A stretch of 64,000 nucleotides of DNA from Nitrosopumilus sp. (GCA_965205425.1 CBDBGZ010000009.1:32001-96000), one strand, 5' to 3'; positions 5,371 through 60,563 are shown, counted from the stretch's first letter. Numbers and translations are program-made. The notes: generated by a model not told the origin, from the letters alone.

Positions 5371-5501
5371 TAGCGAAAAGATAAAGTTCGTGAACTAAAA
5401 ATCATCAAAAAACTAGAGATTAGATGATTTTACCTAAGGTAAATACGAATAAACAATCTGAAACACCTTGAAAATAGTTCATGAACATATGCTTCTCGCT
5501 A
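5371..5501. mobile_element. 131-bp MITE type 1 (IS630-related ends)
   Basis: 27-bp imperfect TIR (21/27) TAGCGAAAAGATAAAGTTCGTGAACTA, TA duplication; matching copy at 36007-36137; left end shared with IS630 type A. Confidence 0.9.
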
Positions 5502-6165
5502 TATTCCTTGAGAATTCTCTTGGGAACATCCATTGAACGTGATTTGTCAATCTCGTAAATTACAGTCCATTTACTCACAAATGCCCACAACCAGTGGTTC
5601 TGGCCATCTACCCTCCAACTTGTCTCATCACCATGTATGTTTAGATCTTCTTTTAACTCTACAATCATTGTATCATATCTGCTCCCAAATGCTTTTGATA
5701 CTATTGATACTGCATGATTAATTGCAGATTCTGTAATGTGCAGTGAGAAGAGCATCTGCAAAAGATGAGATATTTTACCATACGATAATCCGATAGTTTT
5801 TAGTGATATGATTAGCACCATGAGCCTAATTCCAAACCTTTCATTTGACAGTACAGTGTGAATGTTACCCGAGATTTGTTTTTTGCAGTTTGTGCAGTAT
5901 CGTCTAACTATCGTATATTTTGTCACAACTGCTTTTGCAGGAATGATGTCTTCTACTATTCTGGTGTATGAATCAGTTGGTTCTGAGAGTAATTTGCCAC
6001 ATGTGTTGCACTCTTTTTGGTCAACTGTAATGGCATCATCAATGTGTGCCCGTCTGCTTCTACTTTTTCTAGGATGTCTTGATGTTTTCTTCTTTTTTGC
6101 AGTTTCAGTCTGGTTTGGTTTTGCTTTGATATTTTCTGCAACAAGTGTAGACACTGTTTGTTTTA

Positions 6166-7249
6166 TAGCGAAAAGATAAAGTTCGTGAACTAAATTATTC
6201 CAAAACAAAAAACTTTTTGATCACTATGTATGGTAAAATTTGATGAACAAGTTAGAATCACTTGAAAGCAGCATACAAAAAAGAAAACTCCAAGGTTGCA
6301 GTAAGGATGCTTGCAGTGTTGATGATTCTAAAGGATGGAAAGGACATACAGTGCACTGCAAAGACATTACACCACTGCACAAGCTGGGTGAGAAAATGGA
6401 CGAGTCGTTGAGATAGATGGCCTCTACGACCACCCAAGAAGTGGCAGGCCAAGAACAATCTCCCAGACTCGAATGGATGCTATCATGTCAAAAGCAATGC
6501 TAACTTTGTTTACCCCCATAATGTTGCAACAAAGTATCTTTTATTCCACTGGAGTAAAATTTCACATAACCCACATCAGAAAGATAATGCACCAATACGG
6601 CATGTCTGCAAAAACTGCACAAAAATATCACATCAACCATGCAAGTATATCTGCTGTGAGAAGCTGGCAACAACGCATCAAAAAGAGAATTTCACGCCTA
6701 AAAAAGAAAGGATTTGTAATTGCAATGGCTGATGAAGCATTCTTTGTAAGGGATACAAAAACAGGAAAAAAGTACTGGTCACCAGTTGCCAAGAGAATAT
6801 TTCTTCCATATACAGGACGACATGAGAGTCTGGCAGTGTATGGTACAATTACAGAAAATGGTAATCAACTATTCAGAGTTTATGACAAATTCAACGCTGT
6901 GACATTTGTAGAGTACCTAAAGGAATTGCATCAGAAATACGGCAAGATTGCAATCATTTTAGATAGAGCATCAGTTCACAAATCAAAGAAGGTAAAGGAA
7001 TACCTTGCAAACAATAGAGATGTCAAACTAATTTGGTTGCCAAATGGATCACCATACTTGAAGAACATGATAGAGCAGTGCTGGAAGATAAGCAAATATG
7101 CATTGTTGGTTTCAGAGTATTATGCAATGTTTACAATAATGAACAAGGCAGTGTCCTAATATTTCAGAGTGACAAAATTCAAGCTTGATGTTGCAAATTA
7201 TATCTTTAGAAATCCTGCAAAGATGTTTGCGAACTTTTGATCGTCGCTA
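6166..7249 (+). mobile_element. IS630-family element type A, transposase frameshifted with premature stop (ORF 6473-7159)
   Basis: TAGCGA...TCGCTA ends, TA duplication, DDE motifs ADEA / ILDRASVH / IEQCW; near-identical to 42522-43607. Confidence 0.9.
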
Positions 7250-7380
7250 TAGTTCTGCAATTTCCCTGTGTAGTGATTCAATATCTTTGCGTAACTGACG
7301 GTTTTCTTGCTCCAACGAGTGACATCTGTTACGATAATATTCCAGCTCATCATATACTGACAATTGTATATTGTAATTAT

Positions 7381-7582
7381 CCATGTGAATTGTTTTTATA
7401 CATTTCCTCTCTTTCCATACATCAGGGCATGGCTTTCGCTAGAGAATGGTTTCAATCAAAAGATGCGGACATGTATCCATACGAGACTATTCTCTCAATG
7501 CTATCTTCATCCTTTCATTAGGATTGTTCGCAGTTATCAAACGAGGCCTTGTCCCTCATAAATTACAACGCGACTTGCAGTC
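7381..7582 (-). ncRNA. candidate bridge/seek RNA region of the IS110 element
   Basis: Non-coding end conserved in 3 copies; two parallel TGAG..CTCGT stem-loops; short matches to target and donor junction. Confidence 0.6.
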
Positions 7583-8674
7583 CTAACTATAATTTTGTAC
7601 AAATTCTCTCCTCTCCTTTAACATCCAATAAATCACCCTCAGGATCTTTGATGCACCAGCTACTGCAGCTTTGGATGATCCTCTTTTCTTTTTAATGCGA
7701 TTGTAAAATTTTGTAATGTCGCTATCTGGTGCGTATCTAACATGTGCATGAATTGCCTCCACTAGCAACCATCTTAGCATGGTGCTTCCTCTCTTTGTAA
7801 TTCTTCCGTGATGTATTGTATCTGCAGAATTTCTCACCGATGGAACAATCCCTGCATATGCACATAACTTGTGAGAATTTGAAAATCTACTAATCTCTGC
7901 AATTTCTGAGAATATGCTCAATGCAGTGTATGGTCCAACTCCAGGTATTGATGTCAAAATACACACATCAGGATTATCATTTACCATGCGACGTATCATG
8001 GAATCTATTTTTGCAACCTCCTTTTTGTGAAATTTTATGCTTTGTAGGTACGAATCTATTCTATAACTCTCCAATTTTCCAAGTGCACGTATGTGTTCTG
8101 AGGAAAATGGTGTTGCTTTGATATGGATTCCCTCCTGTAGTGTAATGCCATGTATGGAATTCTTCATCTTTACAATGATGCGCACAATCTTGTGTCGATG
8201 TCTTACAAGCTGTCTGTATTGCACAATTGTGTGATCTGGCACAAATGATTCTGCAATGTATCCTCCTCGTAGCAAATTTGCAAGATGGTACGCATCAATT
8301 TTATCAGTCTTTTTGAGTGATGATGCTATTATCTTTGTGTTGTATGGATTAGATAGTATAACATCAAGATGTAATTTGTCTGTCATGTGTCTGTACAATC
8401 CATACCAGACAGATGATGACTCTAAAACATATTTTGCGTTCTTTGGAATTTTGGATGTAATTTTGCTAATAGCAGAAAAATCACTGGAAATCTTTTTGTT
8501 AAATAATAATTTGCCAATCTCATCTACTGCTGCCACCTGTACAGAGTTCTTGTGAACATCCAATCCTACAAACATCAAATATTTTTTTTCAGGAAGGGTA
8601 GTGTGTTTGTTTGCATTTCTTACTTTCTTGATACGAATGCAAGTACCATCTAATTTCCTAGCTGATTTTGGCAC
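7583..8674 (-). CDS. IS110 family DEDD recombinase/transposase
   Basis: VGLDVHK, VLESS, KTDKIDA, IPGVG, AYAGIVP.VRNS, GRITKRG; true start may be the Met of MFVGLD. Confidence 0.95.
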   Translation of the reverse strand: MPKSARKLDGTCIRIKKVRNANKHTTLPEKKYLMFVGLDVHKNSVQVAAVDEIGKLLFNKKISSDFSAISKITSKIPKNAKYVLESSSVWYGLYRHMTDKLHLDVILSNPYNTKIIASSLKKTDKIDAYHLANLLRGGYIAESFVPDHTIVQYRQLVRHRHKIVRIIVKMKNSIHGITLQEGIHIKATPFSSEHIRALGKLESYRIDSYLQSIKFHKKEVAKIDSMIRRMVNDNPDVCILTSIPGVGPYTALSIFSEIAEISRFSNSHKLCAYAGIVPSVRNSADTIHHGRITKRGSTMLRWLLVEAIHAHVRYAPDSDITKFYNRIKKKRGSSKAAVAGASKILRVIYWMLKERREFVQNYS

Positions 8675-8765
8675 ATATGGTTATAGTTATCATTGATCAG
8701 AAAAGATATTGATGAAAAATATCAGAGAAACAACTTCAAAACTCTAGACAGTTACGAAAAAAGAT

Positions 8766-10373
8766 TTATTCTGAACTAAAATCAGAACGCCAATCTTGGG
8801 TGTTTCTAAGATCTTTGGAACTTAAAGTATCTGCTTTTACCACTTCAAACATTGCATGATATACAGGATTATTGGGATGATATCCTATACATTCAAAATC
8901 AACAATGCTTGCCAATGCAAAGCCCTTAAAGTAACCATCTTCCTTATCACGATCGGATTCAACAACATAGTCAGTTACTCTACAATCAACATAGTTGAAA
9001 GTACGTATGTGTTTACCATCTACAATTAATTCAACATCTGCTTGGAATAAACTCAAAGTAGGATTTACACCAGATTGACTTTGGATTTTAAGATTTTCAT
9101 CTATTGCAGAATACAACAATGGAGTATTATCAACTAATCCTTCAACTACAAAGGTAGGATTTGATCTAGATAATACATCTCCTTGATCATAGAAGGGAAA
9201 ATCAATTACTTCTTGTCCATCCTCAAACGTAAAGGTAGCTATGGCATGCACATTTCCAGAAGTTGGAAACTCATGTTGTGGAAGTTCATTGGAAACAAAT
9301 GATGTTTTCCAAATAGGAACGTCACTGTCATATAATGATATTAAATTATCATTTATTGGAGTAAGTCCAGAACAAGTAAATCCAATTTGATTTACCATTG
9401 CAAATCCACTTTTTCCAGTAAATCCATCTTCCTTATCGGCCAGTGTAGTGAGTATTGCAGTATCAACAATACAATCTCTATAATCAAGTGCTCGAAGAGT
9501 TTTATCATCTTTGGTAAATTCAACTAATGCATCAAAGTCATTGTTGAATGCTGTAGTGATGCCAGAAACTTGTCTTGATTTATCAATTGCTGCATATAAC
9601 AATGGGTAATCAGCAATCACACTTTCAACATTAAACTGAGCAACAACATTGTCTGCATTCTCCGCAAAGCCAGAAGTTATTTCAAAGAATGGAAATTCGA
9701 TTCTCTCAAAGCCTTCATCAAATTCAAATGTGATAAATGTTCGTACATCATTTGCAAATTTGTAATCAAGTGTGCCAAAATCAGCATGTGTTCTTTCAGA
9801 TGCTCTTACAGGAACAATGTCAGTGCTAATTCCATCTAATCCACCACAATTGAAATCAATTAAATTAACTACAGCAAAACCAGTCTTAGAAGACATGTAA
9901 CTTTCTTGATCATCTCTAAGAGTTTTTACTTCATAGTCTGTAACATCACAATCATGATAATTTAGAGTTTTTATCACTTCGCCATGTTTTACAAAATCAA
10001 CGTCAACTTCAAAATAACGATAGCCATATTCAAAACTTGAACCACCAGTGGTTTGCAGCCTATATTGATATGCTTGATCTAATGCTTCATACAAATGAGG
10101 AGCCTCATCCAATATACCTTCTACTTGAAAGGAGATTCCACTGTTATCAATAAGATCCTCACCCATTTTGAAAATAGGGAAATTATGGATTTCAACACCG
10201 TCTCTGAAAGTAAATGTTAGAATTGCCTCTAGATCATCTGCCATTTTGTATTGGGTTGAGTTTTCAGTTGTTTTTGCATCTTCAGCATATACATTTGAGA
10301 TTCCAAAGGAAATCATCGTGAATAATACAATAAAGCTAAAAATTGCAATGTTTTTTGTATTTTTACAAGTCAT
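8766..10373 (-). CDS. secreted protein with three tandem ~140-aa repeats, Hcp/tail-tube-like motifs
   Basis: Signal peptide; each repeat has F.VE....P.LY.A.D, .Y.DC.V.. and I.F.C.G. Confidence 0.65.
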   Translation of the reverse strand: MTCKNTKNIAIFSFIVLFTMISFGISNVYAEDAKTTENSTQYKMADDLEAILTFTFRDGVEIHNFPIFKMGEDLIDNSGISFQVEGILDEAPHLYEALDQAYQYRLQTTGGSSFEYGYRYFEVDVDFVKHGEVIKTLNYHDCDVTDYEVKTLRDDQESYMSSKTGFAVVNLIDFNCGGLDGISTDIVPVRASERTHADFGTLDYKFANDVRTFITFEFDEGFERIEFPFFEITSGFAENADNVVAQFNVESVIADYPLLYAAIDKSRQVSGITTAFNNDFDALVEFTKDDKTLRALDYRDCIVDTAILTTLADKEDGFTGKSGFAMVNQIGFTCSGLTPINDNLISLYDSDVPIWKTSFVSNELPQHEFPTSGNVHAIATFTFEDGQEVIDFPFYDQGDVLSRSNPTFVVEGLVDNTPLLYSAIDENLKIQSQSGVNPTLSLFQADVELIVDGKHIRTFNYVDCRVTDYVVESDRDKEDGYFKGFALASIVDFECIGYHPNNPVYHAMFEVVKADTLSSKDLRNTQDWRSDFSSE

Positions 10374-33305: not shown

Positions 33306-34726
33306 ATGACGATGAAAGAACAACTCAATCTATTTGATAATGAATCAGATACTGCCATGTATAAGCATAAACTTACTCTTGAAAAAATTAAGAATGAGTT
33401 AATTGATTTTGGATTAACAAAGAGTCAAGCCAAAGTTTTCATATATCTTGGAAAATATGGTGCTAAAACAGCTTCAGAGGTTTCAAAAGCATTACAATTA
33501 CCAAGAACTGAAACATATCATTTAGTTAATTCCTTACAAAGTTTAGGATTAGTAGTTGCAGAGCTATCTCATCCAACTAAATATACTGCAATGGAAATGA
33601 GAACAGCAATAACAACTTTAGTTAAACAAGAACAAGATAGAATTGGCCTTGTAGAAACCATAATAAAATAACAAAATCTAATTTTCTAATCCTGTAAGCA
33701 TTGTATGCAATTAACCTGTACAACATCTCATTGTCCTGAGTTGTAACATTTCTTGATGTGACATCTCCTGACATTATCTGTTTGATCACAAAAAAGATTG
33801 TTTCAGATTTGTTTCTCTGATGGTACAATTGTACAGGAAAGTTCCTCTTCATCTCCTTTCTGTGAATTCCACTGGTTCTGTAAATTGGAACTGTTCTATA
33901 TCGAGTTGGAATTATTGCAGCTGTGTTGATCTGTTCTGCACCAACATGGTTATTCTCATCATCAAAACCCATGTCACCTAACACAATATCAACTGGAACA
34001 ATATTGTTGGTTTTGTACAACAATGGCAGAAAATCAAGATTATCATGTTGCATGTTGTGGTGTGTCATGACACAGCAAACAAGCTGTGTATTCATGTCAG
34101 CACAAACAACAACTTTTAGGAAATTCCTGCGTAACTGTACTCTTTTTGTATAATAGTATGATGCTGTACTGTAACTGAATCCGCTACCATCAATTCCAGC
34201 TAGAACCAGTCTGACTTTTTTGTACAAAATGAATTCCTGCAACATTTTATGTAACAGATTTCCTTCCAGTCTTGCAGCTGCCTTTTGTAGTGTGGTGTAA
34301 TGTGGAATGGTAGACAAACCAAGATATTCCTGAATTCCTACACATTCTTCTAAAAATTCTGTAAATCTTCTATAACTCTTTGATTCGTACTGTCGTATTG
34401 CCAAGAGTATGAGATGTGTCCAAACAGAATAGATATGATTTGATTTTGGATGTAAGAACCTGGGAATTCTGCATCTGGTGATTATATTGAGTAGTGTTTT
34501 GCACATTTTGACGTATGATGAGACCATACTGTAATCTGCAAATACAATCCTAATGGATCTAAATTAGCTAAAATGTATCACAATTGGGTTAAAATCAGAT
34601 GGTTTCTACAAGGCCGATAGAATTGATTCTTTAGCAAATAAAGAAGATTCTTTATCAGAGTTATGGAAAGAAATTCCATTTTTTGCAGTTGAAACAGATG
34701 AATCAAAATCTGAAAAAATGCAATTA
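33306..34726 (+). pseudogene. TrmB family regulator, interrupted by an IS5-like element and truncated at an IS630 end
   Basis: FGLTKSQAKVF..L, PRTETYHLV; frame continues DRIDSLANKE after IS excision. Confidence 0.85.
33645..34615 (-). mobile_element. IS5-family (IS903-like) element copy 1, 971 bp; transposase ORF 33622-34527
   Basis: 17-bp TIR GGCCTTGTAGAAACCAT, 9-bp TSD GATAGAATT; IDGSGF, GDMGFD, YHQRNKSET. Confidence 0.92.
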
Positions 34727-34858
34727 TAGCGAAAAGATAAAGTTCGTGAACTAAATTATTCCAAAACAAAAAACTTTTTGATCACTATGTATGGTAAAAT
34801 TTGATGAACAAGTTAGAATCACTTGAAAGCAGCATACAAAAAAGAAAACTCCAAGGTT
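34727..34858 (+). mobile_element. left-end remnant of IS630 type A
   Basis: Matches 6166 onward, cut off at the IS630 type B end. Confidence 0.88.
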
Positions 34859-36004
34859 TAGTTAAGGCATTAAATATTTGAATAATTTCACAACTCGAAC
34901 GTCTCCATTATCTAGTCTCTTCTGCATGTGTTTTCTCATCTCAGTTCCATTTGCAAAGAATGTATTGGCATTACCATTTTTCTCTTCTCTCCACTGTACC
35001 TCAATTGGATTGAGTTCTGGAGTGTATGCAGGAAAATATCTTATGATTACATTTCTTTTTGATACCTTGAGAAATTCTTTTACTCTGACACTTTTGTGGT
35101 ATGATGCATTGTCTGCAAATAATAACAGTTTCTTACCAAATTGTTTCTGCAGTGATTCTAAAAAATCAAGAAATGAGTCTGTGTTTGATTTATCATAGAA
35201 CCTACAAAAAAATACGCCGTCATCCCCCAATGCACCAAATGATTGAAATTTTTCTCGAGTGTAATTAATTGGTGTGGTAATGTTATTGCCTGCAAGATAC
35301 CATCCGCGCTTTATGTTAGGTGCTATCTTGTTTGTTGACTCATCCAGACATAGTGTGGTGTATCCCAATTTGGAATATTTTTTGATACTCCTTTTTGCGT
35401 TTTTTTAAAACGGGTTTGTTCCTCTTTTGAGGCTGATTTGTGATGTGTGGGACGTGGTTTTTTTGATGAGAATCCAATTCTGTGCAGCAATTCACGCATT
35501 CCTCTTGCAGAGTATAGGGTGTTGTATTTTTTATTCACATGTGTAATTACCATTCTTGTACTCCACATGAATTGGTTAAATCCAAACTTTTCTGGACCTG
35601 AAATTAGATCATTTCTTAATGATACTAGCTGTTTTTCATTTAGAAAACATCTAGAACCAGAATATTTCTTGCGGTGTGATGCAGATATTCCCTCTTCATC
35701 CATTCGATTTAGCCAGTAGGACAGAGTTGATGGTATGACATCCAGACTTGCACATATCACAGAATACGGAATATTTTGTTTTCTTAGTATTGCAGCCTTT
35801 AATCTTATCTTTGCTTTTGCATTTTTTTCATTCTTGCATACTTTTCTTAAAAAATTAATGCTTGTACCTTTCATGAATTGATTTCCAGAGGAAACCTTGG
35901 ATTGTCTTGTACTCTTTGACATGGTTTCATGAATTGATTCTACGATCTAGATCTTTTGAGTTAAAATACTTGACAGTTTATTCAAAATTTATATGCCTAA
36001 ACTA
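34859..36004 (-). mobile_element. IS630-family element type B, two ORFs (35323-35922 and 34862-35368) in -1 arrangement
   Basis: Imperfect TIR TAGTT(A/T)AGGCAT..; LDES, ADNASYH, PAYTPELNPIE; A7 run at the FKK junction. Confidence 0.9.
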
Positions 36005-36006
36005 TA

Positions 36007-36137
36007 TAGCGAAAAGATAAAGTTCGTGAACTAAAAATCATCAAAAAACTAGAGATTAGATGATTTTACCTAAGGTAAATACGAATAAACAATCTGAAAC
36101 ACCTTGAAAATAGTTCATGAACATATGCTTCTCGCTA
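36007..36137. mobile_element. 131-bp MITE type 1, second copy
   Basis: Matches 5371-5501; TA on both sides. Confidence 0.9.
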
Positions 36138-36725
36138 TATGTTCAGAGCAGGTTGAAAACGAGAATTTACTCCTTCATTTAATGGGTGTTCTACACCATC
36201 AATAATCACAACATAGGGCGTACTTGGAGGATCTTCCATTCTAGGATCACAATATTTGAAATTTGCAGGAAGCGAACCTGCAGGTAATTGAACGGACAGT
36301 ACCCCATATTCCTTAGTTGGAGTAACTGATACGACCAACATCTGATGGTCATATATCATCTTATCAAGTGTGGCACCAGTAATTTCAAAAGGAACTGAAT
36401 TCACAGTTCCAGGAGAATTTATTGGAACGACACCTTTGATATCAACTACATTTTTGTATTGTATGTACCATCCAGTTTTTTCTGCAGTACTATTTGTAAC
36501 ACATGCAAGTTTTCCACTAGGTCTTTCAGTCAAAACATGATCTTGATTGGGACACACAATGTTTGGCAGTACATAAAACTGAGATTGATATTTCAGTGAA
36601 TGAAACCTTGGATCTCCATAACACTCATGATCAGGCAAGCATTTTGCATATGCATCAGAAAAGATTACGGGAATCAATGCCATTACAAATAGCATAATTA
36701 TACCCAAGATCATAAGTCTTTTCAA
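36135..36725 (-). pseudogene. secreted protein: native start displaced by IS630 type C, 3' end truncated at the MITE
   Basis: Excision restores MRLGLIVIMLFVMAL; ORF now stops inside the MITE. Confidence 0.75.
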
Positions 36726-37796
36726 TTTATTGTTCTTGCAAAATACTGATACATATTCAAATTAAATTTGTGGGTTCTAAAATATTCCATAACTGTATGT
36801 CTCATTTCATGAATAGATTCATAAAATTCTGATTCAACATTAACATGTTTGCACTGTCTCCAAATCTCTTCAATCATACTCAAATGTGGGGAACCTCTTG
36901 GAAGATATGCCAGTTTGACATCTTTGTTTTTACGCAGATATTCTTTTACATCATTAGCTTTGTGTTGCGGTGCCCTATCGACGATAACAAATATTTTCCC
37001 GAATTTTCTACGAGCTGCCTCCAAATAATCCATAAATGCAATTGAATTAAATTTTTCATACGATCTAAAAAAACTTTGATTATCATCAGTCACCATCCCA
37101 TAAACCAAAAATCTTTGGTGTGATCCTCTCCAACGTACAATCATTCGTTGGTGTACATCTGTCCAGTATTTTTTACCAAGACGTACATCGTCTACAAATA
37201 CAGACTCGTCTTGGATGAATACTGTAAAACCTTTCTTTTTTGCCTTTTCTATGCGTGAAATGATGCGGTTTTTCCACTTGCGGCACACATCCTTGGATGC
37301 TGCTCGCACATGTACCTTTTGGGGAACCTTTGGTTTTAGATTCCATTTGTGCATCAAAGGACGCACATGAGTGATATGATATGTAATGCGTGTTCTGTAA
37401 AATATGAATTGTACCAGTTTTTTTGGAGTCATGCCGTTTGAAATTTTCTTAAATGTACGCTCTATTTTTTGTAATTTTTTGTGTGAAATTAATGGCGGAC
37501 GGCCAGAACGAGGGGGGTCCTCCAGGCCCTCTAGTCCGTATTTTTCAAATGAATCAAGCCAGTTCCTTACAGAGTTGTATGTACAAAACATTTGGTTGGC
37601 AGTTTCAGCAATTGTGGATTCGTTGATTTTAATCTTACACATTGCATGCAGTCTTTCCTTTTTCTTACCGTACTTTTCTTTTTTGTAGGCCTGGAGTAAC
37701 TCGTCATTTGTAATGTCCATGAAATTATTTCTAACTACTGATCAAAAAGTATTGCTATTTGTTTTGAAAAATTGCAAAGAATTATGCTCCGAGGTA
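36701..37796 (-). mobile_element. IS630-family element type C, intact transposase 36722-37720
   Basis: 26-bp imperfect TIR TACCCAAGATCATAAGTCTTTTCAAT / TACCTCGGAGCATAATTCTTTGCAAT, TA duplication; QDES, VDRAPQH, IEEIW. Confidence 0.92.
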
Positions 37797-37876
37797 TACA
37801 ATGAGTCCTAGCCTCATATCGAACATTTTGTAGGCTATCTGATAAAGTGTTCTATTGATTTCCAAATTTTAGAAAA

Positions 37877-38896
37877 TCAGATTTTGGATACTAAACTAAG
37901 AGAAAAATGCTTTTTCTCATCTAACCAAGTATGTTTTAATTCAAATCCAACATCATCAAGAAGATCATGAATTTCAGATAAGCGATATTTGTGAGAGTAT
38001 TCTGTATGAATTAATTCATCTTTGTTAAGTTTCAACTCTAAATTAGATTTAGAGACAACTACATATTGTTCAGTCATTGATTTTAGATACATTTCAATTC
38101 GTTGGTCTTTTTCATTGTAAATTGCATGATGTGAAAAATTATCTAGATTAAAATCGGCATCGAGTTCATCATTCATTCTAGACAACACGTTTAGATTAAA
38201 CGCTGCAGTTATTTTTTGTAAATCATTATATGCAGATTCAAGTATTCCTTTTTCTTTAACAAGGTCAAGACCAATTAAAAACAAATCACCGGATTTCATT
38301 GTCGAATAAACTTTTTCTAAAAACTTGTAACCATCAATTGGAGAAAAATTACCAAAGCTAGAACCTAAAAAAATTATCAGGTTTTTCTTTTCATCATATG
38401 TTCTAAGAAATTCTAAACCGCCTTCATAGGTATCAATGATTCCAGTAACTGTAAGATTTTCATAATCAGAAAGTAATTGTTCAGAACTTTCAGCAAGAAT
38501 TTCAGAAATATCAATTGGAAAATATTCTACATTATTTTGAGATGTCAAAACATCTAACAACAATCTTGTTTTAACTGAGGAACCACTTCCTAATTCAACT
38601 AGTCTAAAATCATCATCGAGAAAAGAGGGTAATTCATTTTGTAATTGTTTAAGAATAGAAATTTCGGTTCGAGTAGGATAATATTCTGGAGTTGAGCATA
38701 TTTTCTCAAATAAATCAGAGCCCTTTTTGTCATAGAAGAATTTTGGGGAGATGAACTTGGAATCCCGGTTCAAACTAGAAAAAACCTCTTCTGCAAAGGT
38801 CTTTTTAATTTGTGTTGCATGAGGTTTGAAATACCGTAGCCTAGAATCAACTACATATTTTTTGTAATCAAGGTTTTTTTGAATAATATCGGTCAA
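37877..38896 (-). CDS. egtD: L-histidine N-alpha-methyltransferase (ergothioneine pathway)
   Basis: PKFFYD..GS.LFE.I, PEYYPTRTE, ELGSGS, GSSFGNF, IHTEYSHKY. Confidence 0.92.
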   Translation of the reverse strand: MTDIIQKNLDYKKYVVDSRLRYFKPHATQIKKTFAEEVFSSLNRDSKFISPKFFYDKKGSDLFEKICSTPEYYPTRTEISILKQLQNELPSFLDDDFRLVELGSGSSVKTRLLLDVLTSQNNVEYFPIDISEILAESSEQLLSDYENLTVTGIIDTYEGGLEFLRTYDEKKNLIIFLGSSFGNFSPIDGYKFLEKVYSTMKSGDLFLIGLDLVKEKGILESAYNDLQKITAAFNLNVLSRMNDELDADFNLDNFSHHAIYNEKDQRIEMYLKSMTEQYVVVSKSNLELKLNKDELIHTEYSHKYRLSEIHDLLDDVGFELKHTWLDEKKHFSLSLVSKI

Positions 38897-38949
38897 GTAT
38901 TAACCCAGCCAATATTTGACATAAATGCTTTATCCCATTTTTTTATGTC

Positions 38950-39232
38950 TGTTCTTTCCAAAAATTATTTCGTGTCACTTTCATGAGTAATTCCTCCATA
39001 GAATACTTGGGTCTATGAGTATTTCGTTTGTTATCATCTTGGAGTGATACGCATCAGATGGTGTCTCCATGTTATCCAAGTCTAGTGCGCCATGAACTCT
39101 AATGTGATTGTACCAATGCATAAACTGCTCCACTGACTCAAAGTATTCTATTTTACACTCAAAGATATCCCAGAACTTTTCTAGCTTACCATTTGTTTGT
39201 GGATGTCTCACTCTTGTACGAGAGGTGCTTTA
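38950..39232 (-). mobile_element. 3' remnant of the IS481 element (same type as 27461-28502)
   Basis: Near-identical to the 3' end of the first copy; cut at TA by IS630 type C. Confidence 0.88.
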
Positions 39233-39942
39233 TACCCAAGATCATAAGTCTTTTCAATTTATTGTTCTTGCAAAATACTGATACATATTCAAATTAAATT
39301 TGTGGGTTCTAAAATATTCCATAACTGTATGCCTCATTTCATGAATAGATTCATAAAATTCTGATTCAACATTAACATGTTTGCACTGTCTCCAAATCTC
39401 TTCAATCATACTCAAATGTGGAGAACCTCTTGGAAGATATGCCAGTTTGACATCTTCGTTTTTACGCAGATATTCTTTTACATCATTAGCTTTGTGTTGC
39501 GGTGCTCTATCGACGATAACAAATATTTTTCCAAATTTTCTACGAGCTGCCTCTAAATAATCCATAAATGCAATTGAATTAAATTTTTCATACGATCTAA
39601 AAAAACTTTGATTATCATCAGTCACCATCCCATAAACCAAAAATCTTTGGTGTGATCCTCTCCAACGTACAATCATTCGTTGATGTACATCTGTCCAGTA
39701 TTTTTTACCAAGACGTACATCGTCTACAAATACAGACTCGTCTTGGATGAATACTGTAAAACCTTTCTTTTTTGCCTTTTCTATGCGTGAAATGATGCGG
39801 TTTTTACACTTGCGGCACACATCCTTGGATGCTGCTCGCACATGTACCTTTTGGGGAACCTTTGGTTTTAGATTCCATTTGTGCATCAAACGACGCACGT
39901 GAGTGATATGATATGTAATGCGTGTTCTGTAAAATATGAATT
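39233..39942 (-). mobile_element. IS630 type C, truncated copy
   Basis: Near-identical to the first ~710 bp of 36701-37796; transposase 5' part missing. Confidence 0.9.
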
Positions 39943-42067
39943 TAGTTAAGGCATTAAATATTTGAATATTTTAACAACTCTAACATCACCATTATCTAGT
40001 CTCTTCTGCATGTGTTTTCTCATCTCAGTTCCATTTGCAAAGAATGTGTTGGCATTGCCATTTTTTCTTCTCTCCACTGTACCTCAATTGGATTGAGTTC
40101 TGGAGTGTATGCAGGAAAATATCTGATGATTACTTTATTTTTTGGTGCTTTGAGAAATTCTTTTACTCTGAGACTTTTGTGGTATGATGCATTATCTGCA
40201 AACAATAACAATTTCTTACCAAATTGTTTTTGCAGTGATTCTAAAAAATCAAGAAATGCGTCTGTGTTTGATTTATCATAGAATCTGCAAAAAAACACAC
40301 CATCATCCCCCAATGCGCCAAATGATTGAAACTTTTCTCGAGTATAGTTGATTTTGGTTTGTGTATTTTTTCCTTTTAGATACCAGCCTTTTTTGATATT
40401 TGGAGCTATCTTGTTTGTTGACTCATCCAGACATAGTGTGGTGTATCCCAATTTGGAATATTTTTTGATACTCCTTTTTGCGTTTTTTTAAAACGGGTTT
40501 GTTCCTCTTTTGAGGCTGATTTGTGATGAGTCTGTCTTGGTTTTTTTGATGAGAATCCGATACGGTGTAGTAATTCACGCATTCCTCTTACAGAGTATAG
40601 GATATTGTATTTTTTATTCACATGTGTAATTACCATTCTTGTACTCCACATGAATTGGTTAAATCCAAACTTTTCTGGACCTGAAATTAGATCATTCCTT
40701 AATGACACTAGCTGTTTTTTATCTAAGAAACATCTAGAGCCAGAATATTCCTTACGGTGTGATGCAGATATTCCTTCTCGGTTCATTTGGTTTAACCAAT
40801 TACTAAGAGTTGATGGTATGATATCAAGACTGATGCATATTTGAGAATATGTCGGCCTTGTAGAAACCATAATAAAATAACAAAATCTAATTTTCTAATC
40901 CTGTAAGCATTGTATGCAATTAACCTGTACAACATCTCATTGTCCTGAGTTGTAACATTTCTTGATGTGACATCTCCTGACATTATCTGTTTGATCACAA
41001 AAAAGATTGTTTCAGATTTGTTTCTCTGATGGTACAATTGTACAGGAAAGTTCCTCTTCATCTCCTTTCTGTGAATTCCACTGGTTCTGTAAATTGGAAC
41101 TGTTCTATATCGAGTTGGAATCATTGCAGCTGTGTTGATCTGTTCTGCACCAACATGGTTATTCTCATCATCAAAACCCATGTCACCTAACACAATATCA
41201 ACTGGAACAATATTGTTGGTTTTGTACAACAATGGCAGAAAATCAGGATTATCATGTTGCATGTTGTGGTGTGTCATGACACAGCAAACAAGCTGTGTAT
41301 TCATGTCAGCACAAACAACAACTTTTAGGAAATTCCTGCGTAACTGTACTCTTTTTGTATAATAGTATGATGCTGTACTGTAACTGAATCCGCTACCATC
41401 AATTCCAGCTAGAACCAGTCTGACTTTTTTGTACAAAATGAATTCCTGCAACATTTTATGTAACAGATTTCCTTCCAGTCTTGCAGCTGCCTTTTGTAGT
41501 GTGGTGTAATGTGGAATGGTAGACAAACCAAGATATTCCTGAATTCCTACACATTCTTCTAAAAATTCTGTAAATCTTCTATAACTCTTTGATTCGTACT
41601 GTCGTATTGCCAAGAGTATGAGATGTGTCCAAACAGAATAGATATGATTTGATTTTGGATGTAAGAACCTGGGAATTCTGCATCTGGTGATTATATTGAG
41701 TAGTGTTTTGCACATTTTGACGTATGATGAGACCATACTGTAATCTGCAAATACAATCCTAATGGATCTAAATTAGCTAAAATGTATCACAATTGGGTTA
41801 AAATCAGATGGTTTCTACAAGGCCGAATATGTCATGTCTTGTTTGCGTAGAATTGCAGCCTTTAGTCTTATCTTTGCTTTTGCATTTTTTTCATTCTTGC
41901 ATGTTTTTCTTAAAAAATTAATGCTTGTACCTTTCATGAATTGATTCCCAGAGGAAACCTTGGATTGTCTTGTACTCTTTGACATGGTTTCATGAATTGA
42001 TTCTACGATCTAGATCTTTTGGGTTAAAATACTTGACAGTTTATTCAGAATTTATATGCCTAAACTA
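39943..42067 (-). mobile_element. IS630 type B variant, interrupted by an IS5-like element
   Basis: Same TIRs as 34859-36004; ORF pieces 40020-40451, 40406-40870 and a 5' part at ~41834-41985. Confidence 0.88.
40854..41824 (-). mobile_element. IS5-family (IS903-like) element copy 2; transposase ORF 40792-41736
   Basis: Same 17-bp TIR, 9-bp TSD GAATATGTC. Confidence 0.92.
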
Positions 42068-42222: not shown

Positions 42223-42521
42223 GGGTGTGTCCTAAAACCATCCTCTAACATGTTTTGTAACCTCCATCAAATTAACAACTCGTATGTTGTAACAAATTAC
42301 ACGCAACGCCAACTCTTTTCTTTGAACCAACTTGTTTTTTGATGACAAGCTATTTCCAAAGATTCCTTTGAGTACTGCAAATACTGATTCAACAAGTGAC
42401 CTCTTGTGATAATGTCTGTCAAATTCATCTTGATTGTCCTGGAATAATGTTATCATTTTTTTCCATGATGCAGAGCCTTTGGGATTTCTAACCGTGTTCT
42501 TCTTTGGTTTGATGTATGGTA
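42223..42521 (-). pseudogene. 3' remnant of a second IS5-type transposase
   Basis: YHKRSLVESVF..LK and LRVICYN; truncated at the IS630 type A end; outer boundary approximate. Confidence 0.75.
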
Positions 42522-43607
42522 TAGCGAAAAGATAAAGTTCGTGAACTAAATTATTCCAAAACAAAAAACTTTTTGATCACTATGTATGGTAAAATTTGAT
42601 GAACAAGTTAGAATCACTTGAAAGCAGCATACAAAAAAAACTCCAAGGTTGCAGTAAGGATGCTTGCAGTGTTGATGATTCTAAAGGATGGAAAGGACAT
42701 ACAGTGCACTGCAAAGACATTACACCACTGCACAAGCTGGATGAGAAAATGGACGAGTCGTTTTGAGATAGATGGCCTCTACGACCACCCAAGAAGTGGC
42801 AGGCCAAGAACAATCTCCCAGACTCGAATGGATGCTATCATGTCAAAAGCAATGCTAACTTTGTTTACCCCCATAATGTTGCAACAAAGTATCTTTTATT
42901 CCACTGGAGTAAAATTTCACATAACCCACATCAGAAAGATAATGCACCAATACGGCATGTCTGCAAAAACTGCACAAAAATATCACATCAACCATGCAAG
43001 TATATCTGCTGTGAGAAGCTGGCAACAACGCACCAAAAAGAGAATTTCACGCCTAAAAAAGAAAGGATTTGTAATTGCAATGGCTGATGAAGCATTCTTT
43101 GTAAGGGATACAAAAACAGGAAAAAAGTACTGGTCACCAGTTGCCAAGAGAATATTTCTTCCATATACAGGACGACATGAGAGTCTGGCAGTGTATGGTA
43201 CAATTACAGAAAATGGCAATCAACTATTCAGAGTTTATGACAAATTCAACGCTGTAACATTTGTAGAGTACCTAAAGGAATTGCATCAGAAATATGGCAA
43301 AATTGCAATCATTTTAGATAGAGCATCAGTTCACAAATCAAAGAAGGTAAAGAAATACCTTGCAAACAATAGAGATGTCAAACTAATCTGGTTGCCAAAG
43401 GGATCACCATACTTGAAGAACATGATAGAGCAGTGCTGGAAGATAAGCAAGTATGCATTGTTGTTGGTTTCAGAGTATTATGCAATGTTTACAATAATGA
43501 ACAAGGCAGTGTCCGAATATTTCAGAGTAACCAAATTCAAGCTTGATGTTGCAAATTATATCTTTAGAAATCCTGCAAAGATGTTTGCGAACTTTTGATC
43601 GTCGCTA
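42522..43607 (+). mobile_element. IS630 type A copy 2, open transposase 42618-43598
   Basis: TAGCGA...TCGCTA ends, TA on both sides; left and right flanks come from different elements. Confidence 0.9.
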
Positions 43608-43735
43608 TAGCATTGAGAGAATAGTCTCGTATGGATACATGTCTGCCATCTTTTGATTGAAACCATTCTCTAGCGAAAGCCATGCCCTGATGTATAGAAA
43701 GAGAGGAAATGTATAAAAACAATTCACATGGATAA
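43608..43735 (+). mobile_element. orphan right-end (non-coding) remnant of the IS110 element
   Basis: Near-identical to the last ~128 bp of 54695-56013, ends at the ATAA core. Confidence 0.88.
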
Positions 43736-53970: not shown

Positions 53971-54741
53971 ATGGTAAAGCTTGGATTAATTCAAACTACA
54001 TCGCAAAGTACAAATCAAAAAGGAATTGTGCAAGCTTCAAAAATTTTAAAAAAATTAGGAAGGGCAGACACGGACATTGTGTGCCTGCCAGAACAATGGC
54101 TCAAAAATAATGAGATCAGTAATTTTGATGTAGAATTTTCAGAGTTTAAAAAAATAGCAAAAGAATTTTCCATGACCATAATTCCAGGCGCATTTTATGA
54201 AATCATAAAAACCAAGACATCAATAATTTCTCCAATAATAGGGCCAAATGTGGAAATCATAGGTAAGCAAGAAAAAATCCATCCTTTTGACTATGAACGT
54301 GACAATGTCAAGCCTGGGAAAGAGACCAAAATATTCAATACAGCATGTAAGTTCGGAGTAGTAATTTGTTATGACATGGTATTTCCCAAAGTTGCCAATA
54401 CATTTGTGAAAAAAGGAGCCCAAGTACTATTTTCACCAAGTAGAATAGTCAAACGTGGAATTGAGCCATGGCAAATGTATGTTCAAGTACGAGCATTAGA
54501 AAATAGAGTTCCAATTTTAGCCGCAAATGTTGAAAATCATAGATTTGGAGGAAACAGTCTCATCGTAGATTTGACTGAAAATAACAAAGTAGTGACAACC
54601 AAAATTATGAAGTTAAATGGCGAGTACGGAACAAGTAAAGAATTTGACTTGAACAAATATGAAGAGAGTAGAAAAATAAGATTTTCAGATTCAAATAACT
54701 ATAACCATAACCATATGTGCCAAAATCAGCTAGGAAATTAG
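53971..54741 (+). CDS. carbon-nitrogen hydrolase (nitrilase family); C-terminus altered by IS110 insertion
   Basis: LPE, K.HPF, ICYD catalytic triad motifs. Confidence 0.9.
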   Translation: MVKLGLIQTTSQSTNQKGIVQASKILKKLGRADTDIVCLPEQWLKNNEISNFDVEFSEFKKIAKEFSMTIIPGAFYEIIKTKTSIISPIIGPNVEIIGKQEKIHPFDYERDNVKPGKETKIFNTACKFGVVICYDMVFPKVANTFVKKGAQVLFSPSRIVKRGIEPWQMYVQVRALENRVPILAANVENHRFGGNSLIVDLTENNKVVTTKIMKLNGEYGTSKEFDLNKYEESRKIRFSDSNNYNHNHMCQNQLGN

Positions 54742-55808
54742 ATGGTACTTGCATTCGTATCAAGAAAGTAAGAAATGCAAACAAACACACTACCCTTCCT
54801 GAAAAAAAATATTTGATGTTTGTAGGATTGGATGTTCACAAGAACTCTGTACAGGTGGCAGCAGTAGATGAGATTGGCAAATTATTATTTAACAAAAAGA
54901 TTTCCAGTGATTTTTCTGCTATTAGCAAAATTACATCCAAAATTCCAAAGAACGCAAAATATGTTTTAGAGTCATCATCTGTCTGGTATGGCCTTTATAG
55001 ACACATGACAGACAAATTACATCTTGATGTTATACTATCTAATCCATACAACACAAAGATAATAGCATCATCACTCAAAAAGACTGATAAAATTGATGCG
55101 TACCATCTTGCAAATTTGCTACGAGGAGGATACATTGCAGAATCATTCGTGCCAGATCACACAATTGTGCAATACAGACAGCTTGTAAGACATCGACACA
55201 AGATTGTGCGCATCATTGTAAAGATGAAGAATTCCATACATGGTATTACACTACAGGAGGGAATCCATATCAAAGCAACACCATTTTCCTCAGAACACAT
55301 ACGTGCACTTGGAAAATTGGAGAGTTATAGAATAGATTCGTACCTACAAAGCATAAAATTTCACAAAAAGGAGGTTGCAAAAATAGATTCCATGATACGT
55401 CGCATGGTAAATGATAATCCTGACGTGTGTATTTTGACATCAATATCTGGAGTTGGACCATACACTGCATTGAGCATATTCTCAGAAATTGCAGAGATTA
55501 GTAGATTTTCAAATTCTCACAAGTTATGTGCATATGCAGGGATTGTTCCATCGGTGAGAAATTCTGCAGATACAATACATCACGGAAGAATTACAAAGAG
55601 AGGAAGCATGACATTGAGATGGGTTCTAACAGAATGCATACACACTCATGCAATACATGCCAAAGATAGTGACATTACAAAATTTTACAATCGCATTAAG
55701 AAAAAGAGAGGGACCTCAAAGGCTGCAGTTGCTGGCGCATCAAAGATTCTGAGGGTGATTTATTGGATGCTAAAGGAGAGGAGAGAATTTGTACAAAATT
55801 ACAGTTAG
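54717..55808 (+). CDS. IS110 family DEDD recombinase/transposase
   Basis: Near-identical to 7583-8674 except a divergent C-terminal patch. Confidence 0.95.
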   Translation: MPKSARKLDGTCIRIKKVRNANKHTTLPEKKYLMFVGLDVHKNSVQVAAVDEIGKLLFNKKISSDFSAISKITSKIPKNAKYVLESSSVWYGLYRHMTDKLHLDVILSNPYNTKIIASSLKKTDKIDAYHLANLLRGGYIAESFVPDHTIVQYRQLVRHRHKIVRIIVKMKNSIHGITLQEGIHIKATPFSSEHIRALGKLESYRIDSYLQSIKFHKKEVAKIDSMIRRMVNDNPDVCILTSISGVGPYTALSIFSEIAEISRFSNSHKLCAYAGIVPSVRNSADTIHHGRITKRGSMTLRWVLTECIHTHAIHAKDSDITKFYNRIKKKRGTSKAAVAGASKILRVIYWMLKERREFVQNYS

Positions 55809-56009
55809 GACTGCAAGTCGCGTTAAAATGCTTGAGGGACAAGGCCTCGTCTGATAACTGCGAACAATCCTAACTAGGATGAAGATAGCATTGAGAGAAT
55901 AGTCTCGTATGGATACATGTCTGCCATCTTTTGATTGAAACCATTCTCTAGCGAAAGCCATGCCCTGATGTATGAAAAGAGAGGAAATGTATAAAAACAA
56001 TTCACATGG
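55809..56009 (+). ncRNA. candidate bridge/seek RNA region, variant allele
   Basis: Stems shared with copy 1, loop sequences differ. Confidence 0.6.
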
Positions 56010-56022
56010 ATAATTTCAGTGA

Positions 56023-59859: not shown

Positions 59860-60514
59860 CTTGAGAAGTTAACGAATCAGATGTAATTCGTACATCACTT
59901 ATCACGTATCCCACAGAATCCATTCGTTTAACAATCATTTGAGAAACGTCAACAGCTTGTGTAATTCTTTTTCCTCTAGCTTTGATTGTAACAGTTGTTC
60001 TAGTTGAGAGTTGAGTCAAAGTTGCAGAAACATATGTCATGATTGGTTTAGTACCAACGAAAATTATATCTCGTTCTTCATGAACTTTGGGTGAATCGGA
60101 TGTATTAGTAGAAGGTTGTTCTGGTGTTGGTTCTGGTGTTGGTTCTGGGGTTGGTTCTGGGGTTGGTTCAGGTTCTGGTGTTGGTTCAGGTGTTGGTTCA
60201 GGTTCAGGTGTTGGTTCAGGTGTTGGTTCAGGTTCAGGTGTTGGTTCAGGTGTTGGTTCAGGTGTTGGTTCAGGTGTTGGTTCAGGTGTTGGTTCAGGTG
60301 TTGGTTCAGGTGTTGGTTCAGGTGTTGGTTCAGGTGTTGGTTCAGGTGTTGGTTCAGGTGTTGGTTCAGGTGTTGGTTCAGGTGTTGGTTCTGGTGTTGG
60401 TTCAGGTGTTGGTTCTGGTGTTGGTTCAGGTTCTGGTGTTAGTTCAGGTTTATTTCTTGAATCAAATTCAGATAAGATATCTTCTGCGTCTTTAGATTTT
60501 TTGTTGCTGCTCAA
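59807..60514 (-). CDS. albA: Alba DNA/RNA-binding protein with long N-terminal (PEPT)n extension
   Basis: IFVGTKPIMTYV, IKARG..I..AVDV, RNVSTMEI. Confidence 0.9.
   Translation of the reverse strand: MSSNKKSKDAEDILSEFDSRNKPELTPEPEPTPEPTPEPTPEPTPEPTPEPTPEPTPEPTPEPTPEPTPEPTPEPTPEPTPEPTPEPTPEPTPEPEPTPEPTPEPEPTPEPTPEPEPTPEPTPEPTPEPTPEQPSTNTSDSPKVHEERDIIFVGTKPIMTYVSATLTQLSTRTTVTIKARGKRITQAVDVSQMIVKRMDSVGYVISDVRITSDSLTSQDGKQRNVSTMEIDISKN
60117..60446. repeat. 12-bp tandem repeat (GGTGTTGGTTCA)n encoding PEPT
   Basis: Direct reading, ~330 bp. Confidence 0.95.
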
Positions 60515-60563
60515 TTTTAAATTCCCGTTATAACAAATTTCTCTCTCGCTTTTATTTAATTTT

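Follow-up and report, generated by a model that had tools for sequence, protein, structure and literature searches.

The 64,000-nucleotide (nt) stretch of Nitrosopumilus sp. DNA analysed here (GCA_965205425.1 CBDBGZ010000009.1:32001-96000, at its full length referred to as the window) carries an insertion sequence (IS) of the IS110 family, termed copy 1. A two-loop guide RNA that reads both the insertion site and the element's own ends is very probably encoded in its tail. Judging from the sequence comparisons described below, it is highly likely that copy 1 is an IS1111-type member of IS110 residing in Nitrosopumilus and that its family is functional, RNA-guided and moves by conservative recombination. 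RNA guidance of IS110/IS1111 recombinases was reported for bacteria in 2024 (PMC11187229, PMC11208160, PMC11208158).

An initial annotation, made from the sequence of the window alone, had proposed an IS110-family element with a long 3' non-coding end in a thaumarchaeon, and two parallel modules in that end. The close relatives of the host are Nitrosopumilus, among them genome G187 of the same genus, which makes the host a marine ammonia-oxidising thaumarchaeon, and the modules were found at the proposed place as parts of a conserved fold. The coordinates of all features are collected in Table 1.

A conserved two-module RNA fold follows the recombinase gene

Relatives of the copy 1 protein were detected by a protein search in 34 of 201 genomes of the order (a tally that counts the unpublished genome G108, used in no other result), and the two modules after the stop codon are kept in homologues with 48-54% protein identity. 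The RNAalifold consensus for ten 3' tails comprised 25 pairs in five helices, in which an outer stem and a second stem close internal loop 1 around hairpin 3, and another stem closes loop 2 around hairpin 5. With a covariance model built from this ten-tail consensus, 151 genomes of the order were searched, and matches to the RNA turned up in 12 of them. The evidence for the fold is based on 85 homologous copies in Nitrosopumilus and related genomes, obtained as two sets: the first comprises 32 hits from 30 loci, and the second 53 hits from another 56 loci of Nitrosopumilus type, all 53 beginning at the end of the open reading frame (ORF) or just past it.

In the first set 95.6% of the cells were paired in comparison with 32-49% when the 3' partner was slid, and compensatory changes were detected in 17 of the 25 pairs; the corresponding values for the second set were 99.2%, 35-49% and 11 of 25, and all of these figures overstate the case, since they were counted in alignments of related sequences that had been fitted to the model. 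The covariation score was reached by none of 500 shuffles in each of both sets. Covariation of the stems had been named in the initial annotation as a check of the proposed RNA. The slid controls make a convincing case, at the level of aligned sequences, that about 140 nt after the stop codon adopt a conserved fold with two internal loops.

A competing long stem, pairing the module-2 hairpin with the stretch before a GNRA-like hairpin, had been raised as a caveat in the initial annotation and was rejected as a covarying helix. The energy was -3.59 kcal/mol for cognate and -3.99 kcal/mol for non-cognate partners, and 18024 of 20000 permutations among 28 distinct sequences did as well. Generic purine/pyrimidine pairing may occur in this region. 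Two further arrangements were noticed, namely an alternative outer stem of module 2, formed by GGATGAAG with a downstream CTTCATC-like stretch and seen by eye in several lineages, and a handshake-like extension of the 3' strands beyond the core, which fits some copies and fails in others.

Module 1 matches the insertion site on both strands

In copy 1 the 5' strand of module 1 is the reverse complement of the occupied right flank over 8 of 8 nt, and its full 11 nt match the empty site reconstructed from contigs (see below) in 11 of 11 positions. The extra T that the guide shows against the occupied flank is explained by this match. Over TGATAA, the 3' strand reads in the same sense as the left flank. 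Such matches to the two target halves, on opposite strands and overlapping at the core, had been claimed for copy 1 in the initial annotation, which had also pointed to covariation of loop and target across homologues as their test, and both were recovered in the larger data set.

Every guide was scored against its cognate flank as well as against all the other flanks, at least 7 exact nt being counted as a match. On the right flank, such matches were present in 42 of 72 cognate distinct guide/flank pairs and in 256 of 5112 non-cognate ones (5.0%), and, when one row per distinct guide was taken, in 18 of 41 cognate rows versus 1.6% non-cognate. The left flank matched the 3' strand of module 1 in 22 of 42 cognate rows (7.8% non-cognate), the rows being fewer than on the right because the left ends of many partial copies could not be found. 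In all three flank tests the observed sum was reached by 0 of 20000 permutations, a count which is not a probability as many rows are related. On these comparisons, the matches between the module-1 loop and the flanks exceed chance and covary with the target on both strands.

Individual loci illustrate the relationship. At L056 a guide containing G and C matched its flank in 10 of 10 positions, 7 nt of the G/C-rich guide of L066 matched its flank, and guide-flank matches of 9 nt were found at L071, L074 and L081. In a family of 12 copies within one genome, the guide's (T)GATTCATA was present in 11 right flanks, beside unrelated DNA. A copy from genome G187, which shares its right flank with copy 2 of the window and has a different left flank, carried strands matching its flanks in 7 of 8 and 9 of 9 positions. 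Different guides in near-identical elements accompanied different flanks.

Module 2 mirrors the element ends

The initial annotation had assigned module 2 to the two donor halves, and the comparison of loops with element tips speaks for this assignment. The right tip agreed with the 3' strand of module 2 in 68 of 74 copies, TGG tips occurring with ATGG loops and TAG tips with ATAG loops. On the left, CTAT tips were accompanied by ATAG in the 5' strand in 27 copies and CCAT tips by ATGG in 12, and the rarer G-containing tips were also mirrored in the loop. The six apparent exceptions belong to the subfamily of the window's own copies, whose true tip is CTAT. In copy 1, the 3' strand ATGGATAC equals eight consecutive bases of the predicted circle junction with 3 nt between the tips, a reading that depends on the empty-site contigs. 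Independent changes of the tips were few (three right-tip types and two main left-tip types), so the evidence is thinner than for module 1. Taking both modules together, the aligned copies demonstrate that, across dozens of lineages, changes in each of the four loop strands go along with changes in the DNA that the strand matches. The strand order is that of IS1111-type seekRNAs (PMC11187229), and the difference of one base in register between the modules, given as a caveat in the initial annotation, is real and immaterial.

Two observations concern the element ends themselves. The left ends of 27 distinct elements contain a 7-9-nt copy of the module-2 5' strand, located about 27-33 nt inside the tip and covarying with that strand across lineages; the mean agreement of this 9-mer with the 5' strand was 7.59 for cognate and 5.94 for non-cognate pairs, a value reached by 0 of 20000 permutations. 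In read-through transcripts this 9-mer could pair with the tip to give a hairpin; alternatively, it could serve as a decoy. At the right ends, an outward-facing A/T box (TATAAAAA, TTTAAAAA or similar) lies behind AAAT, 6-13 nt from the tip and in front of it; of 45 distinct right ends, 39 had a run of at least 6 A/T letters in this position. By its position, the box could be a candidate archaeal promoter reading across the circle junction into the gene, which begins 12 nt inside the left end.

The recombinase and the borders of copy 1

The copy 1 protein matched PF01548 (DEDD_Tnp_IS110, N-terminal, E=1e-21) and PF02371 (Transposase_20, C-terminal, E=1e-22), as well as the NCBIfam equivalog NF033542, 'IS110 family RNA-guided transposase', whose cut-off of 140 bits was exceeded with 239.8 bits over residues 35-356. 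Judged by these domains, it is a member of the IS110 family. Among solved recombinases, distant similarity was found to ISCro4 (E=4.4e-8) and IS621 (E=5.9e-7), and in the alignment with their chains from the PDB, S283 stood opposite the catalytic serine of the SG motif. D39, E85, D124 and D127 are candidate acidic residues by motif position, the alignment of the N-terminal part to the solved chains being weak. The gene is preceded by 12 nt up to the GTG or 111 nt up to the ATG start codon and followed by about 205 nt of non-coding sequence (7381-7582). The element had initially been called compact, a description which was dropped, as 330-363 amino acids (aa) and an RNA of about 140 nt are ordinary for the family.

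In the direct reading of the sequence, copy 1 is bordered by ATAA at 8687-8690 and 7377-7380. Independent copies stop agreeing just beyond ATAA at the left edge and just past CACATGG + ATAA at the right edge. The sub-terminal repeats of copy 1, CCATATGTG on the left and CACATGG on the right, form 5 base pairs (bp) of perfect match, or 7 of 9 with a 2-nt gap; in the sister elements the repeat measures 8 bp, and 7-17 bp is the length used as the IS1111 criterion.

An unoccupied site was searched for in contigs from four public DNA runs aligned to window positions 6900-9200 (reads at 90% likeness). Empty-site joints were present in three of the four runs (X1, X2 and X4). In one type of joint, 7377 was connected to 8687 with 1,309 bases skipped; in the other, 7378 was followed by two other letters and then by 8690. 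Both represent the same empty site, one base apart, and the site of copy 1 is polymorphic, the element being absent from it in related populations. Because the empty site holds the 5-nt A(T/C)AAA where the occupied site carries two ATAA, the insert is 1,309 bp long and a circle junction with 3 nt is expected; the junction thus probably carries 3 nt between the tips and not 4, which replaces the 4-nt ATAA junction of the initial annotation. Contigs joining back to a circle were absent from the four runs, with only 'skip' joints seen, a result of no weight either way since contigs drop rare forms.

The source genome consists of 2.2 Mb in 9 contigs. When it was searched with the element by blastn, six copies were found at 95-100% identity, designated A (copy 1), B, C, D (copy 2 of the window), E and I (3'-truncated), along with subfamily 2 composed of three copies (F, G and H) at about 90-91%, a group at about 67% and several fragments. 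Nine full-length matches in the genome had no internal stop. The initial claim that all junctions fall on ATAA held for copy 1, for both sides of copy 2 (54695-54698 and 56010-56013) and for the remnant, which is directly followed by ATAA at 43732-43735. It failed for copy B (G000:C9:483635-484945; L044/L075), whose right junction is ATAC. The ten bases across this right junction of copy B equal the module-2 3' strand, and the junction may be a trace of core resolution or of handshake-like pairing.

Alternative explanations

Several points weigh against an RNA-guided element, beyond the limits given above with the pair and permutation counts. Folding of copy 1 as a single sequence was no better than that of shuffles (z = -1.31; 21 of 200 shuffles equal), and a search against Rfam gave no match at gathering score over the window and only chance-level ones at E up to 10 over 7300-8760. 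The serine motif of the protein is SA, the usual form being SG/TG. In two of the three empty-site joints the shorter side measured 28-29 letters (70 in X4), with reads taken at 90% likeness. The left-guide match of copy 1 extends beyond the core by 2 nt only, and the same-sense control, which was much weaker than the cognate comparison, was not flat (245 of 20000 permutations). Fewer than 7 matching nt were found in 30 of the 72 insertions; copy 2 and copy B matched with 4 nt each and L003, L053, L060 and L068 with 3 each, the match of L053 reaching 9 of 10 by eye with G-U pairs allowed. Finally, the public sequencing runs listed for the element include no RNA run.

In one alternative, the family is RNA-guided and the copies in the window are decaying mosaics no longer moving under their own guides, a reading that is unlikely, if the most probable of the three alternatives. 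The guide of copy 2 does not fit its own flank, and its right flank fits the guide of the G187 copy seated at the same right flank. The flank of copy B fits the guide of copies D and E, while the flanks of D and E fit a guide now present only in G187, so that several of the misses look like the result of exchange between copies. The left-end 9-mer of copy 1 disagrees with the element's own donor loop, and a remnant lies at 43607-43731. Against such decay, the ORF of copy 1 is intact, its guide fits the empty site over 11 of 11 nt, and the polymorphism of its site in public runs speaks for recent movement.

Somewhat less probable is the view that module 1 alone is a guide, in the manner of a narrow seekRNA, with the protein recognising the ends via sub-terminal repeats and module 2 resembling the ends by common descent. 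The tips are highly conserved with the few independent changes counted above, and sub-terminal inverted repeats are present as in IS1111 elements. This view is countered by the mirroring of tip changes in the loop (68 of 74; CTAT/ATAG and CCAT/ATGG; the rarer G-containing variants), and by the architecture of module 2, which is that of module 1; a donor loop of this kind is used by IS621 (PMC11208158).

In a third, very improbable reading, the 3' region is a conserved untranslated region with another role (as a terminator, in mRNA stability, or as a site that a protein binds to recognise the ends); an A/T-rich target would be picked by the protein alone, and the loop-flank matches would be a by-product of A/T-rich sequence. 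The non-significant single-sequence fold, the A/T-richness of flanks and loops and the 30 poorly matching insertions would suit this reading. It is opposed by the 42 of 72 cognate matches versus 5% non-cognate from the same A/T-rich set, by the G/C-containing guides that match too (L056, 10/10; L066, 7 nt) and by the different flanks of near-identical elements with different guides.

Insertion into a sister element and a possibly chimeric subfamily

All copies of subfamily 2 have the left end of a sister IS110-type element on their right, as seen in 3 of 3 copies of this genome and 8 of 8 aligned in G187. The loci concerned are L048 (G000:C9:245786-249000), L049 and L047, together with L031-L039 of G187 and L092. 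The module-1 strands of subfamily 2 match the left tip of the sister element, so that subfamily 2 is an IS directed to a position a few bases within the end of another one. IS4321 and IS5075, which belong to the IS1111 family, reportedly target the terminal repeats of Tn21-family transposons. Like them, the sub-lineage described here is a mobile element directed at the end of another one, every insertion lying a few bases into the left tip of a related IS; unlike them, it has the end of a sister element from the IS110 family as its target, and guide loops matching that tip would explain the targeting.

The subfamily of the window's copies is 96-97% identical to subfamily 2 over the first approximately 1.1 kilobases and has a sister-type 3' RNA and right end (window 8643-8686 and 7447-7586). 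Its left tip, CTATAA + CCATATGTG, equals exactly the junction of subfamily 2 seated in the sister's tip. This suggests, as far as the sequences allow, that the window subfamily is a chimera and that fusion created a new mobile element.

A different rearrangement was observed at L073 (G092:C1:354285-357443), where a tandem duplication of about 50 nt of the right end gives two right tips in a row and module 1 is partly deleted. The element family shows evolution by swapping of 3' RNA modules and repair of tips.

Surroundings and feature coordinates

The window is crowded with other mobile elements (5420-7252, 42519-43610 and 33645-41153) and contains several further long repeats. A repeat finder reported a long tandem array of 12- and 18-nt units in 25 overlapping copies at 60058-60533.

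Table 1. Features of copy 1, of related copies and of neighbouring elements, in window coordinates.
Feature	Position	Strand	Basis and remarks
Inserted element, copy 1 (1,309 bp)	7378-8686	-	Empty-site contig joints; boundary ambiguous by 1-2 nt
Transposase/recombinase ORF	7583-8674	-	363 aa with the GTG start (8674), 330 aa with the ATG start (8575)
Left-end tip	8672-8686	-	Copy comparison; begins CTAT (predicted to be read by module-2 5' strand), holds sub-terminal repeat CCATATGTG
Left-end internal 9-mer	8643-8651	-	CCAT-type in copy 1, mismatching its own donor loop; in relatives a duplicate of module-2 5' strand
Two-module RNA core	7447-7586	-	Covariance-model match; starts within stop codon
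Module 1, 5' strand TTGTAATTTAT	7558-7568	-	Predicted to pair with top strand of core and right target
Module 1 hairpin (helix 3)	7542-7558	-	Consensus fold, covariation
Module 1, 3' strand	7533-7541	-	Sense of left target and core: TGATAA, or 7 nt with the next C
Module 2, 5' strand	7498-7507	-	ATAG complementary to CTAT of left-end tip
Module 2 hairpin (helix 5)	7482-7497	-	Consensus fold, covariation
Module 2, 3' strand ATGGATAC	7472-7481	-	Right-end tip, 3 nt and first base of left end
T-run just past module 2	7458-7461	-	Possible archaeal terminator or RNA 3' end; T-rich in most relatives
A/T box TATAAAAA	7393-7400	-	Candidate archaeal TATA box facing out of right end; conserved A/T run
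Right-end tip CACATGG	7381-7387	-	Sequence reading; partner of sub-terminal repeat
Copy 2 (copy D), 95% identical	54699-56009	+	blastn, flank comparison; differing module-1 5' strand, unfit for own flank
Remnant, last ~125 nt of a copy	43607-43731	+	From inside module 2 to right-end tip; adjoins end of DDE_3-type element
IS66-like ORF	5420-6208
DDE_3/IS630-like ORF	6473-7159		Its element recurs at 42763-43610, end directly adjoining the IS110 remnant

Proposed mechanism

The element would be excised as a circle whose junction consists of the right tip, 3 nt and the left tip. Loaded onto a DEDD/Ser recombinase, the RNA would pair with this junction through module 2 and, through module 1, with a target some 13 nt long, in which TGATAA overlaps the 11-nt right guide, and strand exchange would then take place beside the A/T core. 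The transposase transcript would probably provide the guide RNA as its 3' portion, ending at the T-run past module 2, and the outward A/T box of the right end may drive the transcript of transposase and RNA only from the circle.

More tentatively, the clade may possess layers beyond those of the bacterial systems, a proposal which is doubtful when its three parts are taken jointly: a covarying left-end copy of the donor strand working as a cis hairpin or decoy, a circle-only outward TATA-like box, and a sub-lineage retargeted to the tip of its sister with subsequent fusion. The donor-strand copy could gate translation or donor recognition. Transcription from the circle-junction promoter would give a leaderless mRNA for the transposase, its 3' part being the guide RNA, and fusion of the retargeted sub-lineage with its sister would have given the chimeric subfamily of the window's copies, a natural modular exchange of RNA and ends.

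Relation to known systems

The placement of copy 1 in the IS1111 group is argued from architecture. In that group the bridge RNAs are placed in the right end, and they were predicted in 93% of the IS1111 elements of ISfinder (Durrant et al. 2024, PMC11208160). In IS1111 seekRNAs the top-strand match lies 5' of the bottom-strand match and the two overlap in the target (Siddiquee et al. 2024, PMC11187229), and IS1111 transposases have 330-350 aa with a GL-P----S(t)G motif (PMC11187229). Copy 1 resembles the seekRNA elements ISEc11, ISKpn4, ISPa11 and ISPst6 in its long non-coding region downstream of the gene, its short overlapping matches to both target strands with the top-strand match 5', and a transposase of about 330-350 aa when counted from the internal ATG (330 aa here); candidate sub-terminal inverted repeats are present as well. 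It differs from them in its archaeal host, its short repeats (5-8 bp), the SA serine motif and the donor matches, which lie in a simple second internal loop, and no match of its RNA to a described one was found in Rfam or at sequence level.

With regard to IS621 and ISCro4, Hiraizumi et al. (2024, PMC11208158) define the left guide by its pairing with the bottom strand and the right guide by pairing with the top one. Copy 1 would share with these elements recombination at a short shared core, a candidate active site of DEDD plus serine, and two internal loops. Each loop has one strand for the left half of target or donor, read on the bottom strand, and one for the right half, read on the top strand. 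Unlike in IS621/ISCro4, the RNA is located at the 3' end instead of the left end, the two strands of each loop stand in the opposite order, an A/T core (ATA/TAA-like) takes the place of CT, and the protein is only distantly similar (E about 1e-7).

Archaeal IS110 recombinases have been counted, as proteins, to a number of 662 (10.1101/2024.06.21.599552). In the available parts of the literature, PMC13343696 included, neither an archaeal guide RNA nor a description of the Nitrosopumilus family was found; the supplements of the papers may list such predictions.

Significance

The principle of RNA-guided IS110 elements is already known, and the value added here lies in the diversity of guides, the targeting of one element by another and a possible use in archaea. 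The dozens of guide variants beside matching flanks, together with the empty site of copy 1, constitute dense natural evidence for the mechanism in archaea. Ammonia-oxidising archaea are not known to have genetic tools. The 41 distinct natural guides within one genus would, if the reading is true, amount to a ready-made programmable recombinase for these organisms. A native small programmable recombinase of a mesophilic ammonia oxidiser may thus offer a first genetic handle on the group and a further orthologue for genome engineering.

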